From: Escherichia phage vB_EcoM-pEK20
Direction: 5' to 3' (one strand)
DNA length: 64,000 nt
Sequence record: MZ868638.1
The translations under genes and the position numbers were made by a program. Shown in pieces: positions 3,134-39,081 of the stretch (the first letter of the stretch is position 1; each line of letters starts with the position of its first letter). The notes under the pieces were generated by a model, which saw only the letters and a list, made by a program, of their open reading frames with translations, made no database searches and had not been told where the DNA came from.

Positions 3134-3730
3134 ATGCGAAACCAAAATAATGATATTGACTCAATGTTCGAAGAGTTCCGAGATAAGGTAAATCCACCTA
3201 CGTCTTTAGTTGATTCATTACGATATGTTGCAACTGGACGTAAATGGTACTGGTCGTCTTCTTATGAGACAACTGAATATGCAAATAACCGAAAATCTTT
3301 ATTAGCCCCAGGTATTATGATTCATGATATCGGAGCTATTGCTAAACTAGTTGCAGACCATGATATTAGATTCACTGATTTCGTTGCTCCTACGTGGTCT
3401 GTTTGTTGTTTAAACACTGAATGGGACTATATCAGTGAACGTTCAGATGATTACATAGGCTTTAGAGACAAGCTTTTAAGGTCTAACATGTTTTATATTG
3501 ATACAGAAGTTCTGGTCAATAATAAAAAATACTACTTCACTTTAATCGTCGATTCTGAAACTATGTATGAAGGCAAGCCTTTGCTTAAAAGAGTTGATGC
3601 TTTAAGTGCTATTGATGCGCTTTATGAAACCATGGTTGTTAGTCCTAATTTCACTAACAATTTAATCCTTGAGCAATTTATTATGGAATGTAGAGAATAT
3701 GTCAAAGCCAACCCTATACATGCCAAGTAA
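3134..3730 (+). CDS. hypothetical protein
   Basis: ATG with SD aaagga; C-terminus carries EQFIMECR junction motif. Confidence 0.5.
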   Translation: MRNQNNDIDSMFEEFRDKVNPPTSLVDSLRYVATGRKWYWSSSYETTEYANNRKSLLAPGIMIHDIGAIAKLVADHDIRFTDFVAPTWSVCCLNTEWDYISERSDDYIGFRDKLLRSNMFYIDTEVLVNNKKYYFTLIVDSETMYEGKPLLKRVDALSAIDALYETMVVSPNFTNNLILEQFIMECREYVKANPIHAK

Positions 3731-4094
3731 GCCCTGGGCGTATGAATACAAGCGTAAATTAATCCCAAATGAAGTACTATTTGGCCCTATTTTAGCTTTA
3801 GCGTTTTTAATCTTTATGTTTATAGGAGCTGTTTTAGATTCCAATAAAGTTATATCGTCTGATGCAGCGTTTTCATTAATGTTCGTCGCACCACTTATTG
3901 TACCGTTTTTATTAATGCCTATTAATTGGGCAGGATATTGGCACCAAGGCCGTCATCACAGAGCCCGATTAAGAGAATGGAAAGTTCAGTGCGCAAAAGC
4001 CCAAGCTCAGTATGATGAAGCTGTTAAAAAGTATGAATATGAAGAAGCTATGGAATTCGTTAAGGAAATAAGATGCAAAAACCTCAACTCTTAA
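3699..4094 (+). CDS. small membrane protein (2 predicted TM segments)
   Basis: first in-frame ATG of listed TTG ORF; hydrophobic segments; C-terminal EFVKEIRC motif; start uncertain (3720 also possible). Confidence 0.4.
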   Translation: MSKPTLYMPSKPWAYEYKRKLIPNEVLFGPILALAFLIFMFIGAVLDSNKVISSDAAFSLMFVAPLIVPFLLMPINWAGYWHQGRHHRARLREWKVQCAKAQAQYDEAVKKYEYEEAMEFVKEIRCKNLNS

Positions 4095-4315
4095 CCGTAT
4101 GGCCTTCTCTTGGTGAGAACGTTCTAATTTTTATTATGAGTATTGGCATGGGATTTGCCTTTGGATTAGTTGGATTTCTTATTGACGGCGTTGTGTTAGG
4201 ATTTATAGGGAACACTGTTGGATTCACAGACCAATGGCAGGACTTACGGTATACACAAGCCTTTGCATCCATCGCATCATTTTGTACTGTAGTCTATTTT
4301 TACTACGATTTATAA
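4073..4315 (+). CDS. small membrane protein
   Basis: ATG ORF, strongly hydrophobic 80 aa. Confidence 0.45.
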   Translation: MQKPQLLTVWPSLGENVLIFIMSIGMGFAFGLVGFLIDGVVLGFIGNTVGFTDQWQDLRYTQAFASIASFCTVVYFYYDL

Positions 4316-4426
4316 ACCATAACAAGAAAAATAAAAAGGTTTACGCTTCTCAAATGATTAGTTATAATGAACTCCTAGCTAGACGTGAAAATGAAACAAT
4401 CGAAAACTTTATTAAGGAATGTAGAA

Positions 4427-4732
4427 ATGAGTAAGATTATTGAAATTAAAGTACCAGAGTTTAATGATGCCAAATCCGCTTCAGATGCAATTTATAAACT
4501 TCTGAATCAAGCTGAACGTATCGAAGAAGAAGCAACAAAGATCGCAGACCAATATGCCGTATCATTTTCTGTAGGTGATTATGGTAGTGGTCGTACTTAT
4601 TATCCTAAGGGTGAAATCGTATCCCAGTGGATGAAAGATGAAATTGAAAATAATGGTGGCGATGTTAAGCGTGAAGGTAATGGTTACATTATTACTGAAG
4701 GTGCTTGGGTTTCGTCTTCTGCGTTGTGCTAA
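4427..4732 (+). CDS. small protein, paralog family with C-terminal GxW[VI]SSSxxC (copy 1)
   Basis: ATG at M15 of listed GTG ORF; C-terminus GAWVSSSALC. Confidence 0.5.
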   Translation: MSKIIEIKVPEFNDAKSASDAIYKLLNQAERIEEEATKIADQYAVSFSVGDYGSGRTYYPKGEIVSQWMKDEIENNGGDVKREGNGYIITEGAWVSSSALC

Positions 4733-4741
4733 GGAATCATT

Positions 4742-5014
4742 ATGTCTAAAGAACAAACCGAACTGGCTGAAGCCGTAGCAAAAATCTATGCAGCTATTGA
4801 GGCTGCCAAAGAAATTGCTGATAAACAAAACACAACATTCGACTTGTATCCAGCTTATGGTATGGGTGGAACCTATCATTCACCGGGACAACTTAAAGCC
4901 GATCTTGAACGTTGTACAAAAAACGGCTATGCTGAATGGGCTGACGTTTACCAATACGACTACAATCTGAGCCTCGAAACTGGTGGTTGGATTGCGTCTT
5001 CTCACACTTGCTAA
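4742..5014 (+). CDS. small protein, paralog family (copy 2)
   Basis: ATG ORF; C-terminus GGWIASSHTC. Confidence 0.5.
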   Translation: MSKEQTELAEAVAKIYAAIEAAKEIADKQNTTFDLYPAYGMGGTYHSPGQLKADLERCTKNGYAEWADVYQYDYNLSLETGGWIASSHTC

Positions 5015-5023
5015 GGAAATCAT

Positions 5024-5221
5024 ATGTCTCGTGAATTAGATTGTGCTGTACGTACGGCAGTAGCTGCCCTAGAAAACCTGTTCCAAATTGCAACAGAAGA
5101 ACGCGAAGAAGTTACATTATGGATTGAAGATAACGCAGGTCTGAATCTCCAGAATGCAATCTCGGTATCAAATAATAGTATTACTGTTCAAGGCTGGGTA
5201 TCATCTAGTTATTCTTGCTAA
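5024..5221 (+). CDS. small protein, paralog family (copy 3)
   Basis: ATG ORF; C-terminus QGWVSSSYSC. Confidence 0.5.
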   Translation: MSRELDCAVRTAVAALENLFQIATEEREEVTLWIEDNAGLNLQNAISVSNNSITVQGWVSSSYSC

Positions 5222-5225
5222 AACA

Positions 5226-5255
5226 GTTTACAACAAGATAGGGCTATGTTATAGT
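5226..5255 (+). promoter_or_regulatory. early promoter in stem-loop
   Basis: -35 gtttac 5226-5231, -10 tatagt 5250-5255; inverted repeat gatagg 5237-5242 / cctatc 5259-5264. Confidence 0.6.
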
Positions 5256-5283
5256 AGTCCTATCAAATTAAACGGAGACCACA

Positions 5284-5523
5284 ATGATTTATTACGAAAG
5301 TGTTGGAACCAAAGTGGTTGGTAAAACCATTACTCGTGAAAAGTTTGCAAAGATATTCGATATGCGTTATAAAAAATCTGAACACAAAGGCATCCGATTC
5401 GAAGATGCACACTGTACAATTTGCCCTTATAATGAAGACATAAATGGTACAATCGTTCCATTAGTAGAGGCTTCACACGATGACCTCTGGGATGAATATA
5501 ATATCGCATGTCGTGAAATTTAA
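5284..5523 (+). CDS. hypothetical protein
   Basis: ATG ORF with SD ggagacc upstream. Confidence 0.45.
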   Translation: MIYYESVGTKVVGKTITREKFAKIFDMRYKKSEHKGIRFEDAHCTICPYNEDINGTIVPLVEASHDDLWDEYNIACREI

Positions 5524-5547: not shown

Positions 5548-6504
5548 ATGATGTTAGTTATTGGTTCTCGTGCACTTCACTATCATGGTCTTATTGATTC
5601 TAGCGCTATCAAAAATAGCGATTGGGACTTTATTGCGGACCAAGGTTCTTGGAATGCATTCAAAAATCAAATGATGGGTGTATATGTTCACCAAGACAAC
5701 CCTGATGTCCAAGTTTTCAAATGCTTCCATAATGGACGCGAAACTCATTTTGAAGCATATATTGTTCCGGCAATCACTAATGTTCGTGAACTAGTCGGTG
5801 AACTCACTCCTGAAGATTTCACGTCTTCTTATGACCTTTTAAAATACGCCAAGAAAAATTTGACTAAAGATCGTTTGACCGGGTTTTACTGGGCAACTCC
5901 TGAGATATGTCTTGCAATTAAAATGTCTCATCGTTTCAAGAAAAATAATCCATTCTTTTTAAAGACTATGAACCATATTCAGTATCTTCGTGGTAAAGGT
6001 GTTACACTGAACGATGAACTTACTGAAATTATGCTGAAACGCCAGAAAGAAACTTTGAACTATGCTCACCCAGTTCTTGACACTTCTAAAAGTGCGTTCT
6101 TTAAAGATGACATCTATACATATGACCATGATACTATTCACGAAGCCATTGCACTAACAGACCGTCCGGCTTATACGTTTTACATGAAAGACGGTTCTGA
6201 AGTCATGACCTCACGCGAGAAGTTCGAATCGTTACCAGAAATGGTCAAATTGGCCGGCGTATATGAAGAATCATGTGTACTAGCGTTAGAACGTTCTCAG
6301 ATTCCTAATAACTTTGAAATTAACCCTGAAGCCAGTTTCATGATGGCATTAGAAAAAGTCTGCACAAGCATCACCTCCGGTTGGTTCCGTGAGTATGCCT
6401 GGGAGAACTATGGCAAAGTAGTAAGTATGTATCAAAGCTTAGGACACGACGATTACGTCAAGCGTTTCAAACAAAATTTTCATATGGTAAAACCTTTCAA
6501 ATAA
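5548..6504 (+). CDS. hypothetical protein (possible minimal nucleotidyltransferase fold, weak)
   Basis: 318-aa ORF, SD gagga; N-terminal IGSRALHY...DWD loosely resembles GS...DxD motif. Confidence 0.5.
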   Translation: MMLVIGSRALHYHGLIDSSAIKNSDWDFIADQGSWNAFKNQMMGVYVHQDNPDVQVFKCFHNGRETHFEAYIVPAITNVRELVGELTPEDFTSSYDLLKYAKKNLTKDRLTGFYWATPEICLAIKMSHRFKKNNPFFLKTMNHIQYLRGKGVTLNDELTEIMLKRQKETLNYAHPVLDTSKSAFFKDDIYTYDHDTIHEAIALTDRPAYTFYMKDGSEVMTSREKFESLPEMVKLAGVYEESCVLALERSQIPNNFEINPEASFMMALEKVCTSITSGWFREYAWENYGKVVSMYQSLGHDDYVKRFKQNFHMVKPFK

Positions 6505-6516
6505 CTTCACAAAACT

Positions 6517-6546
6517 GTTTACAACAAGATAGGACTATGTTATAGT
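6517..6546 (+). promoter_or_regulatory. early promoter in stem-loop
   Basis: -35 gtttac 6517-6522, -10 tatagt 6541-6546; inverted repeat ataggact/agtcctat. Confidence 0.6.
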
Positions 6547-6574
6547 AGTCCTATTAAAACATGAGGAGAATATT

Positions 6575-6880
6575 ATGAAATTAGGCGAAACCAACCGAAT
6601 TGGTCTTTTAACAATATTTGCATCACCTTTTTACGCAGCTCTTTCTGTTGCAGTATTACAAAAGGCTTACGATATGGATGGTGTTCCTGGTTGTATATTC
6701 TTATCACCATTTTTATTATTCGTCGGGGCTTTGTTATTATATGCCACGACTAGTTTTGACCATAATGTCTGGGTTAATTATAAATGTAAATTGTCTGAAG
6801 AAGAACACGCAGAAGCTCGTAAAAAAGCTATTGAATCTACCAATCTAGAAAATTTCATTAAAGAATGTCGAGGAAAATAA
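6575..6880 (+). CDS. small membrane protein with C-terminal ENFIKECR motif
   Basis: ATG ORF, SD gaggag; two hydrophobic segments. Confidence 0.5.
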   Translation: MKLGETNRIGLLTIFASPFYAALSVAVLQKAYDMDGVPGCIFLSPFLLFVGALLLYATTSFDHNVWVNYKCKLSEEEHAEARKKAIESTNLENFIKECRGK

Positions 6881-37163: not shown

Positions 37164-38838
37164 ATTAAATCGTGTTCGTTATAAAAATATAATGTCTGTT
37201 GGGCAAAATTTTATCGATATCCAATTAGATAAAGTCCAAAAGACCTTAATCACAGGTAAAAATGGTGGTGGTAAATCTACGATGTTAGAAGCCATTACTT
37301 TCGGACTTTTCGGTAAACCATTTCGTGATGTTAAGAAAGGGCAAATCATTAATAGCACGAACAAGAAAGAGCTCTTAGTTGAGCTTTGGATGGAATTCGA
37401 TGGTAAAAAATACTTCATTAAACGTGGCCAAAAACCCAATATTTTCGAAATCTCCGTTGACGGTGTTCGTCTTGATGAATCTGCCAGCAGTCGTGACTTC
37501 CAAGAAGAATTTGAACGCAGCATCGGAATGTCATACGCGTCTTTTAAACAAATCGTTGTGCTTGGGACGGCAGGGTATACCCCTTTCATGGCTCTTAGCA
37601 CCCCTGCTCGCAGAAAACTTGTCGAAGACCTTTTAGAAGTCGGCACACTCGCTGAAATGGATAAAATCAATAAGTCTCAAGTTCGAGAACTTAATTCCCA
37701 GGGACAAGTTCTCGATGCCAAGAAAGATGGTATTATCCAACAAATTAAGATTTATAACGAGAATATCGAACGTCAAAAGAAATTATCTGGTGATAATGTA
37801 GCGCGTCTACAGAATATGTATGACGACCTAGCCAAAGAAGCTCGTTCATTAAAAGCAGAAATCGAAGAAGCTAATGAGCGACTACTTAATATCGTTCTTG
37901 ATGAAGACCCTACTGAGGCATTCAACAAGATAGGACAAGAAGCATTCTTGATTAAATCTAAAATCGACTCATATAACAAAGTTATTAAGATGTATCATGA
38001 CGGTGGCACATGTCCTACTTGTGCATCACAGTTGCACCAGGGTGATCCTATTGTCTCTAAGATTACCGATAAGCTTCACGAATGTAATCACTCATTCGAA
38101 CAACTTACATGTCACAGAGATAATCTGAGTGTCTTAGTGGACGAATATAGAGCTAATGTTAAGACTAAACAGGACCTTGCATCTGATATTCGTACCAAGA
38201 AACAAGCAATGATTGCCACTATTGATAAAGCTAAGAAAGTTAAAGCTGCAATAGAACAAGCCTCAGCGGAATTTATCGACCATGCCGATGAGATAGCTTT
38301 GCTTCAAAAAGAACTTGATAAAATCATTAAAACAAAATCGGATATCGTTCTTGAAAAATACCATCGTGGTATTATCACAGATATGTTAAAAGATTCTGGT
38401 ATTAAAGGTGCTATCATTAAAAAATATGTGCCTCTGTTCAACAAACAGATTAACCATTATCTTAAAATCATGGAAGCTGATTACGTGTTTTCTATTGACG
38501 AAGAATTCAATGAATCTATAAAATCACGTGGTCGTGAAGAGTTCAGTTATGCTTCATTTAGTCAAGGTGAAAAGGCACGTATCGATATCGCATTGTTGTT
38601 TACATGGCGAGATATTGCTGAAAAGGTCTCTGGTGTTAGAATCAATACATTAATTATGGACGAAGTCATGGATTCCGCGACTGATTCTGAAGGTATTAAA
38701 GCTATTTCAACAATTCTTAACTCTCTAACCGATGCAAACGTGTTTATAATTAGTCACAGAGACCATGACCCACAAGCTTATGGACAACATCTTCAAATGA
38801 GCAAAGTTGGACGATTTACTGTAATGACTGTTTCATAA
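37150..38838 (+). CDS. 46: recombination endonuclease subunit gp46 (Rad50/SbcC-like)
   Basis: Walker A GKNGGGKST, coiled-coil middle, CPTC zinc hook, signature FSQGEKARI; GTG start overlapping HEG end. Confidence 0.95.
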   Translation: MKTFKLNRVRYKNIMSVGQNFIDIQLDKVQKTLITGKNGGGKSTMLEAITFGLFGKPFRDVKKGQIINSTNKKELLVELWMEFDGKKYFIKRGQKPNIFEISVDGVRLDESASSRDFQEEFERSIGMSYASFKQIVVLGTAGYTPFMALSTPARRKLVEDLLEVGTLAEMDKINKSQVRELNSQGQVLDAKKDGIIQQIKIYNENIERQKKLSGDNVARLQNMYDDLAKEARSLKAEIEEANERLLNIVLDEDPTEAFNKIGQEAFLIKSKIDSYNKVIKMYHDGGTCPTCASQLHQGDPIVSKITDKLHECNHSFEQLTCHRDNLSVLVDEYRANVKTKQDLASDIRTKKQAMIATIDKAKKVKAAIEQASAEFIDHADEIALLQKELDKIIKTKSDIVLEKYHRGIITDMLKDSGIKGAIIKKYVPLFNKQINHYLKIMEADYVFSIDEEFNESIKSRGREEFSYASFSQGEKARIDIALLFTWRDIAEKVSGVRINTLIMDEVMDSATDSEGIKAISTILNSLTDANVFIISHRDHDPQAYGQHLQMSKVGRFTVMTVS

Positions 38839-38839
38839 A

Positions 38840-38864
38840 CGCTTTAACACGATGTGGTTATAAT
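38840..38864 (+). promoter_or_regulatory. middle promoter (MotA-box type)
   Basis: cGCTTTA 38840-38846, 12-nt spacer, tataat 38859-38864; inverted repeat gatgtggt/accacatc. Confidence 0.55.
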
Positions 38865-38892
38865 GACCACATCAAATTAAATGGAGAACAAC

Positions 38893-39081
38893 ATGGAGTA
38901 TTCAACTGGCCAACATCTTCTCGTTGTCCCTGAAATTAAAAAATATGTTTTGACCAATACGTTTTCAGGTGAAGAACATATTGTTACTGAACAAATGCTC
39001 AAATCTGCTTTTAAAGATGAGTATAATAAAATAATGTCTAATCGCAATTCCGCATGGACAGTTACCGACTTCTACGAATAA
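38893..39081 (+). CDS. 45.2: small protein 45.2-like
   Basis: ATG at M5 of listed ORF; position upstream of rpbA/45. Confidence 0.5.
   Translation: MEYSTGQHLLVVPEIKKYVLTNTFSGEEHIVTEQMLKSAFKDEYNKIMSNRNSAWTVTDFYE

Follow-up and report, generated by a model that had tools for sequence, protein, structure and literature searches.

Small acidic phage proteins with a common C-terminal tag are encoded upstream of a predicted MenT-like nucleotidyltransferase and are probably linked to it in function

Three consecutive small genes of Escherichia phage vB_EcoM-pEK20 (MZ868638.1) encode members of a large protein family with an invariant C-terminal tag, and genes of this family were found upstream of one type of predicted nucleotidyltransferase gene in unrelated phages. 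A functional link between the tag proteins and the enzyme is likely (probability approximately 0.85), and the pair looks like a two-part module which has not been described; no literature on these ORFs, on their DUF or PHROG accessions or on such a module was found in open-access papers and bioRxiv. The analysis was based on a stretch of 64,000 nt from this phage (the window), to which the coordinates below refer unless a locus is named.

The three genes, here called A, B and C, are located on the plus strand at 4427-4732 (101 aa, corresponding to RB69ORF139c), 4742-5014 (90 aa, RB69ORF137c) and 5024-5221 (65 aa, RB69ORF136c). A sequence-only reading had reported three consecutive genes with similar endings, and the ORFs were recovered at exactly those positions on one strand. 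Protein A possesses a type 1 body, with a long N-terminal helix, the segment F-S-x-G-D-Y-G-S-G-R-T-Y-Y-P and an acidic linker, and ends in GAWVSSSALC. The type 2 body of B contains A-Y-G-M-G-G-T-Y and is followed by GGWIASSHTC, while C has a short body without the YGxG segment and ends in QGWVSSSYSC. Read from the sequence, the tails are W94-V-S-S-S-A-L-C101 (4706-4729), W83-I-A-S-S-H-T-C90 (4988-5011) and W58-V-S-S-S-Y-S-C65 (5195-5218), all on the plus strand and each followed directly by TAA. The gaps between A and B and between B and C are 9 nt each, and a Shine-Dalgarno-like TAAGGA overlaps each of the three stops. A promoter-like site (TTTACG-17-TATAAT with a MotA-box-like GCTT element; 10/12 match) was identified upstream of A at 4340-4368 (plus strand); its counterpart in phage SA79RD, a 96%-identical relative, carries the annotation of a T4-type middle promoter. 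In Pfam, NCBIfam and PADLOC, the three proteins gave sub-threshold noise only.

All six frames of the window were searched for stop-to-stop ORFs of 35 aa or more that end in a loose tail pattern, W.[SAT][ST].{0,4}C.{0,1}. Only four ORFs matched and three of these were A, B and C; the shared tail is therefore not due to chance. The fourth, a 54-codon stop-to-stop ORF at 38769-38933 ending in NWPTSSRCP, was dropped as a chance match, having none of the other features of the family.

The family was delineated by a profile search of 1.84 billion representative proteins (E <= 1e-3), which revealed at least 653 clusters at 50% identity. Nearly all matches were 65-150 aa in length, with the end of the profile coinciding with the end of the protein. 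The sole universal feature of the family is the tail, W-x-[S/A/P]-S-S-x(0-3)-C, situated at the C-terminus or not more than one residue from it. In a sample of 148 representatives with mutual identities of 50% or less, Cys was the terminal residue in 140, and in most of the others a single residue follows the Cys. The 140 Cys-terminated sequences have Trp at position -7 in 138 cases, Ser at -4 in 139 and Ser at -3 in 137; Ser, Ala or Pro occupies -5, and positions -6, -2 and -1 are variable. Judged from these sequences, the tail is under strong purifying selection. In 165 distinct ORFs all six Ser codons occur at -4 and -3, TCN and AGY being used interchangeably, the Cys is encoded by TGC or TGT, and all three stop codons are used. 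The mixed Ser codons indicate that the constraint acts on the protein and not on the DNA or a ribosome-binding site. An artefact at the DNA level, in which the endings would be conserved as a sequence for ribosome binding or translational coupling at the next gene, is suggested by the position of TAAGGA across the stops, 9 nt before the next ATG; it is refuted by the variable Ser, Cys and stop codons, and the motif is also kept where no gene follows closely, so that this explanation has practically no chance of being correct.

The sequence-only reading was to be given up if the motif proved absent from orthologues. It was found to be kept in orthologues of many T4-like phages, including RB69, HX01, JS98-like phages and phages of Klebsiella, Edwardsiella, Yersinia, Serratia and Aeromonas, and the family also occurs well outside the T4-like phages. 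The common architecture consists of an N-terminal amphipathic helix (...IADEhGhxF), a short strand, a loop, an acidic linker rich in Asp, Glu, Tyr and Trp, and the tag. The loop is usually D-Y-G-S-G-R-T-Y-Y-P or A-Y-G-M-G-G-T-Y. Other body types include the C-type without the loop, proteins of 140-170 aa with unrelated N-terminal extensions, and "double" type 4 proteins which combine an internal DW[LMQ]SS[SAD]CYGEGD copy with a terminal W-x-S-S-S-C. No Pfam domains were identified in the N-terminal extensions of the longer members. The proteins are acidic (median pI 4.4, median net charge -8), and 67 of 169 have no Cys other than the terminal one. In the type 4 and variant tails (W-x-x-S-S-C, WVQSSC and internal copies) the S-S pair is anchored to the Trp and not to the Cys. 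The spacing between S-S and the terminal Cys ranges from 0 to 3 residues across the variants and some copies of the motif are internal, which argues against a strict need for a free alpha-carboxylate at a fixed distance.

Proteins A and B matched the family profile phrog_899 (E = 3.5e-22 and 1.9e-18, respectively) and C matched phrog_4882 (E = 1.6e-36). There is no Pfam model for the tail family, and searches of PDB sequences with single sequences and profiles yielded nothing for the small proteins or for the enzyme. The best reading of A, B and C is that they are members of a large family of small, acidic, non-structural phage proteins. Their orthologues in phage phiR1-RT (g126-g128) were among the 94 proteins of unknown function left for a toxicity screen once those present in the virion proteome or resembling known proteins had been set aside (PMC6893735). 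Cloned in E. coli, the three were non-toxic, with relative CFU values of 0.94, 0.69 and 1.08 against a threshold of 0.4 (PMC6893735 supplement); the enzyme, g125, was left out of this screen (PMC6893735).

An AlphaFold2 model of A places the tag Trp and the first Ser in the last beta-strand and the residues SSAL in a short helical turn. This strand comes after the one which follows the YGSG loop and forms part of the folded sheet; according to the model, the tag may thus be partly structural rather than a free peptide. Such a position would fit small proteins that are ligand binders, acting as a sponge or receptor for a nucleotide that the enzyme makes or destroys, with the tag and the YGxG loop together forming a metal or nucleotide site or an oligomer interface. 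Small acidic phage proteins often serve as sponges, the internal W-x-S-S-x-C of type 4 proteins runs directly into Y-G-E-G-D so that the two motifs lie side by side, and a vs.4-like gene adjoins the module in phage ukendt. Against this, type C and several larger proteins carry the tag without the YGxG motif, and no known sponge fold, nor a HEPN-like fold, was detected in the model of A. Ligand binding is accordingly regarded as rather improbable.

The sequence-only reading further proposed an old tandem expansion with a constrained tail. This holds, given the homology of the bodies, the presence of type-specific orthologues and the selection on the tail. Proteins A and B are clear paralogues, both belonging to phrog_899, and after removal of the last nine residues the A-type and B-type orthologue groups were aligned by hhalign with 98% probability (E = 3e-13). 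Direct profile-profile comparisons of the C-type body with A and B, tail removed, showed no similarity, the tail alone being common to them; through intermediates, the C-type N-terminal helix could be connected to B-type proteins (BLAST, 43% identity over 30 aa, E = 1.3e-4). Based on these sequence comparisons, C would most simply be a B-type copy from which the central YGxGGTY segment has disappeared. Orthologues specific to each of the three types occur in several genera, indicating that the expansion is old, and type-specific residues at -2/-1 are kept across genera (x-M-C in A-type, x-E-C in B-type and Y-x-C in C-type proteins).

The region is 97% identical to that of Escherichia phage HX01 and other RB69-like Mosigvirus genomes. 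Genes A, B and C are located between homologues of e.3 and e.2 in the e-tRNA hyperplastic region; in T4, e.3 abuts e.2 with nothing between them and the module is therefore absent from this T4 site. An intergenic repeat, TTTACA-N5-ATAGGNCTATGTTATAGTAGTCCTAT, which comprises early-promoter-like hexamers and an overlapping stem-loop, was identified at 5227-5263, where it divides the triplet from the next unit, and at 6518-6554 (both plus strand). These two copies match the search pattern exactly, differ from each other at one unconstrained position, and bracket a 79-aa ORF and the nucleotidyltransferase gene, the second copy closing this unit. A third copy, with three mismatches, is located at 2136-2172; the number expected by chance is 0. 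The repeats resemble the PeSL cassettes described for the hyperplastic regions of T4-type phages (PMC2839356, PMC4122927). The 79-aa ORF (5284-5523, plus strand; phrog_3723) lies between C and the enzyme gene and encodes a C-x-x-C at residues 44-47. Its family was not among the neighbours common to different enzyme lineages, and it is doubtful that it belongs to the module.

Three small membrane-type ORFs flank the module: the homologues of e.4 (3699-4094) and e.3 (4073-4434) and a 101-aa ORF (6575-6880). They share a motif near the C-terminus, E-x-F-[IV]-K-E-[CI]-R, with 1-5 residues after it (the endings are ...EFVKEIRCKNLNS, ...ENFIKECRNE and ...ENFIKECRGK), which is also found in several tandem membrane ORFs of related phages (loci L003 and L028). 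They are a second paralogue family with a constrained tail and a distinct motif. The e.3 homologue is split in the window into ORFs at 4073-4315 and 4234-4434. Two 1-nt deletions distinguish the window from phages SA79RD and 308Ecol101PP, one in a T-run near 4309 and the other in an A-run near 4425, just before the start of A; the split is either a real pseudogene or the result of homopolymer sequencing errors.

The gene for the partner enzyme (5548-6504, plus strand; 318 aa, corresponding to RB69ORF134c and phrog_2141) begins approximately 330 nt downstream of C. Its product matched DUF7277 and DUF7275 in Pfam (E = 1e-27 and 1.5e-78, respectively), and nothing in NCBIfam or PADLOC. DUF7277, at the N-terminus, is a pol-beta-type nucleotidyltransferase domain that contains G6-S7, D25-x-D27 and E69; these five residues, of which the G-S and D-x-D residues are catalytic, are invariant or nearly so among the homologues, as would be expected for an active enzyme of this type. 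The C-terminal DUF7275 is a helical domain in which K125, H128, K139, T140, R165, Y172, H174, H194-D195, H198, E240, E241, E248, R249, K270, C272 and S274-x-T-S-G278 are invariant. An AlphaFold2 model of the enzyme, built with 36 homologues, had a pLDDT of 91.0 and a pTM of 0.86. The closest solved structures to this model were MenT1, MenT3/TglT and MenT4; the nearest structures nucleotidylylate hydroxyl groups on tRNA 3' ends or antibiotics. The protein is thus predicted to combine a pol-beta core of the MenT/AbiEii/ANT kind carrying the G-[S/T] and D-x-D catalytic residues with a MenT-like bilobed fold. Membership of DUF1814/AbiEii was not found by sequence, the 36 homologues giving only DUF7277 and DUF7275 even at E values up to 10.

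The association of tag genes with this enzyme was first noticed in Yersinia phage fHe-Yen9-01, where four tag genes directly precede the enzyme homologue. Further examples came from Phapecoctavirus ukendt, Otagovirus phiPsa374, Serratia phage 4S and Aeromonas phage 44RR2, where the genomic surroundings are quite different. In a survey starting from the enzyme, 68 of 80 loci on viral contigs had at least one tag ORF ending not more than 1.5 kb upstream on the same strand, and no tag matches were found on the opposite strand or downstream in these loci. The background of the loose pattern is about one spurious match per 64 kb over six frames. Three apparent exceptions (L045, L062, L066) have tag ORFs slightly further upstream, and three others (L034, L082, L087) have variant tags outside the pattern, e.g. 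W-Y-P-S-S-Q-S-C and W-V-Q-S-S-C. In a survey starting from the small proteins, using the type 1 alignment, the enzyme was encoded downstream in 21 of 21 loci with downstream DNA. Tag ORFs were located upstream of the enzyme in five of five loci from metagenome-assembled genomes, and two distant family members that were looked up independently, P0057 and P0059, precede genes for which DUF7277/DUF7275 matches had been precomputed.

Approximately five of the 80 enzyme loci (L028, L047, L052, L076 and L080) had no tag ORF within 4 kb; as the loci cover 4-5 kb on either side of the enzyme, this means that none is nearby. The enzymes of these loci were checked as possibly degenerate forms which had lost particular invariant residues, and all invariant residues were found to be kept. 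Based on these sequences, the enzyme may have another substrate. In L052 the enzyme gene (3788-4714) is split into ORFs for a 55-aa N-terminal and a 209-aa C-terminal part; the enzyme is intact, at 308 aa, in its close relatives L047 and L076. The split may reflect decay of the enzyme in a lineage without tag genes.

For 90 loci, the enzymes of which form 22 lineages at 60% identity, every ORF in a segment reaching from 3.5 kb before the enzyme to 2.5 kb after it was included in a clustering; lineages were counted besides loci because the IMG/VR loci are not fully independent. The tag family was present in 80 of the 90 loci and 18 of the 22 lineages, and a separately clustered family holding the type 4 double-motif tag proteins in 37 loci and three lineages. 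All other neighbour families were limited to three lineages or fewer, making the tag family the only widely common neighbour. The module would therefore consist of two components, i.e. one to four tag proteins and one enzyme.

It is very improbable that the two components have no functional link, in which case the tail would be a signal for stability, degradation or localisation, or an inherited structural element, and the adjacency would stem from mobile-cassette ancestry. Genes of T4-type hyperplastic regions do travel as PeSL-bounded cassettes (PMC2839356, PMC4122927), and the tail is partly structured in the model of A. However, the coupling extends over those 18 lineages without any other common neighbour and over unrelated phage families and settings (T4-like phages, Phapecoctavirus, Otagovirus and contigs of approximately 350 kb); the gene order and strand are constant, with tag genes upstream of the enzyme; and the tag stays invariant though the identity of the enzymes falls to about 38-45%. 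In the window, the triplet and the enzyme occupy separate units bounded by promoter and stem-loop elements, with the 79-aa ORF between them, and in Mosigvirus and JS98-like phages other ORFs or 1.1-1.3 kb separate the tag genes from the enzyme gene.

A few further neighbours were observed. A nicotinamide phosphoribosyltransferase (NAMPT) gene precedes the module by a few kb in Aeromonas phage 44RR2 (L007, 1-680), and in an unrelated metagenomic contig of 87 kb such a gene immediately precedes the first tag gene (L116, 2323-3990). In phage ukendt (L004), the vs.4-like gene lies just upstream of the module and a Sir2-like gene approximately 2 kb downstream. These may represent an accessory or counter-defence neighbourhood, or a coincidence.

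As to the nature of the link, the explanation tentatively favoured, at somewhat less than even odds, is that the tag is a docking and acceptor site for the downstream enzyme. The enzyme would recognise its one to four client proteins by the tag as a handle, with the Trp serving for docking. A hydroxyl of the invariant Ser-Ser pair would then undergo O-nucleotidylylation or phosphorylation, with an NTP as the donor. A later step could involve the nearby terminal Cys together with DUF7275, and the diverged bodies of the clients would direct the modified proteins to different targets in early or middle infection. This is favoured because the invariant residues of the tag comprise three nucleophiles, namely two Ser and one Cys, and a single aromatic anchor, because one enzyme serves one to four clients with diverged bodies, and because the structural relatives of the enzyme all nucleotidylylate hydroxyl groups. 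The auto-phosphorylation of MenT1 at T39 and of MenT3 at S78 demonstrates that MenT-family sites can phosphorylate Thr or Ser of a protein (PMC11375011), and hence that this class of enzyme can act on a protein hydroxyl. Against an acceptor tag speak the possibly structural role of the tag in the model of A, the variable distance from S-S to Cys together with the internal motif copies, the enzymes which keep all invariant residues but have no tag gene nearby, and the placement of triplet and enzyme in separate units of the window.

The main rival, considered unlikely, is that the small proteins are antitoxin-like regulators by which the nucleotidyltransferase is inhibited or tuned, in the way that MenA1 acts on MenT1. 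An electropositive nucleic-acid groove of the enzyme would be covered by the acidic body, and the tag would block the active site or cause the catalytic Ser7 to be auto-phosphorylated; the substrate of the enzyme would be tRNA 3' ends, either to shut off the host or to repair tRNA of phage or host. In MenT systems a short antitoxin gene lies upstream of the toxin gene, and MenT1 auto-phosphorylates its active-site Thr39 when induced by MenA1 (PMC10435456, PMC11375011). As in MenAT1 and AbiE, small acidic partners are encoded here upstream on the same strand, and the fold of the enzyme is closest to MenT; gene order, acidity and fold fit regulation as well as they fit an acceptor tag. The enzymes of those systems are DUF1814 proteins, whereas the phage enzyme matches only DUF7277 and DUF7275 in Pfam and has an extra invariant domain rich in His, Asp, Glu and Cys; moreover, the present module belongs to lytic phages and has one to four partners with a common invariant C-terminal tag. 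One to four diverged paralogues per enzyme would be unusual for antitoxins, the conserved residues are nucleophiles and not a typical binding surface, and some enzymes are without any nearby tag gene. The intervening ORFs or distances in Mosigvirus and JS98-like phages also mean that expression is not tightly coupled there, and the small proteins show no likeness in sequence or fold to MenA1, AbiEi or other PDB chains.

The acceptor-tag explanation can be compared with several known systems. In MNT-HEPN, a minimal nucleotidyltransferase AMPylates its partner protein. As here, a pol-beta-fold nucleotidyltransferase is encoded beside a small partner, though hydroxyl nucleotidylylation is only a candidate reaction for the phage enzyme. 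Proteins A, B and C had no Pfam HEPN match and no Rx4-6H motif, and the candidate acceptors are Ser residues of a tail, not a Tyr in a HEPN fold, with several partners per enzyme. The antibiotic O-nucleotidyltransferases ANT(2'')/AadB and LnuA differ in being single-domain enzymes which act on small molecules and have no tagged protein partners. We know of no counterpart in MenAT, AbiE or MNT-HEPN for an invariant C-terminal tag common to multiple partners.

Systems consisting of a tag and an enzyme include RiPP precursors with class III/IV lanthipeptide synthetases and PEP-CTERM sorting tags with exosortase, in which, as here, diverged proteins with a short invariant terminal motif are associated with one dedicated enzyme. 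By analogy with RiPPs, Ser-Ser situated 0-3 residues before Cys would provide the residue set for Ser activation, elimination and thioether formation. In contrast to leader-core peptides, the tagged proteins are folded and 65-170 aa in length, and the spacing of S-S and Cys is variable. No LanB/LanM/LanKC/LanC or LanD-type gene was found among the enzyme neighbours common to lineages, and the enzyme had no such match in Pfam. The AviCys motif is S-x-x-C-COOH, and a fixed (S/T)-x-x-C-COOH spacing would be expected of such systems; canonical tails have S at -3 in 137/140, but in type 4 and variant tails the S-S pair keeps its distance to the Trp and not to the Cys. An AviCys-type reading was downgraded in view of the anchoring of S-S to the Trp, the Cys spacing of 0 to 3 and the lack of a LanD-like gene.

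A stronger form of the acceptor-tag explanation, possible if on the unlikely side, is that the module is an unrecognised phage protein-modification system, in which the MenT-like enzyme, helped by its invariant second domain, covalently modifies the W-x-x-S-S-x-x-C tag of small effectors. Candidate chemistries would be Ser-O-(poly)nucleotidylylation, or activation and elimination of Ser followed by a thioether with the terminal Cys. Such a system would yield modified effectors or decoys directed against the host or host defences.

The tag is among the most sharply conserved short motifs possible for a family of small phage proteins. It is invariant over hundreds of clusters, the remainder of the protein differing between them, and its tie to a single type of enzyme extends over T4-like, rV5-like, Otagovirus-like and jumbo-size phage contigs. 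Control of a MenT-like enzyme by the small proteins would mean that lytic phages employ nucleotidyltransferases which target tRNA and are regulated by several partners. Should the tag be modified by the enzyme, the module would constitute a new viral enzyme-substrate pair for protein nucleotidylylation or related Ser/Cys chemistry, and two Pfam DUFs, two PHROGs and hundreds of early genes now annotated as hypothetical would gain a function.
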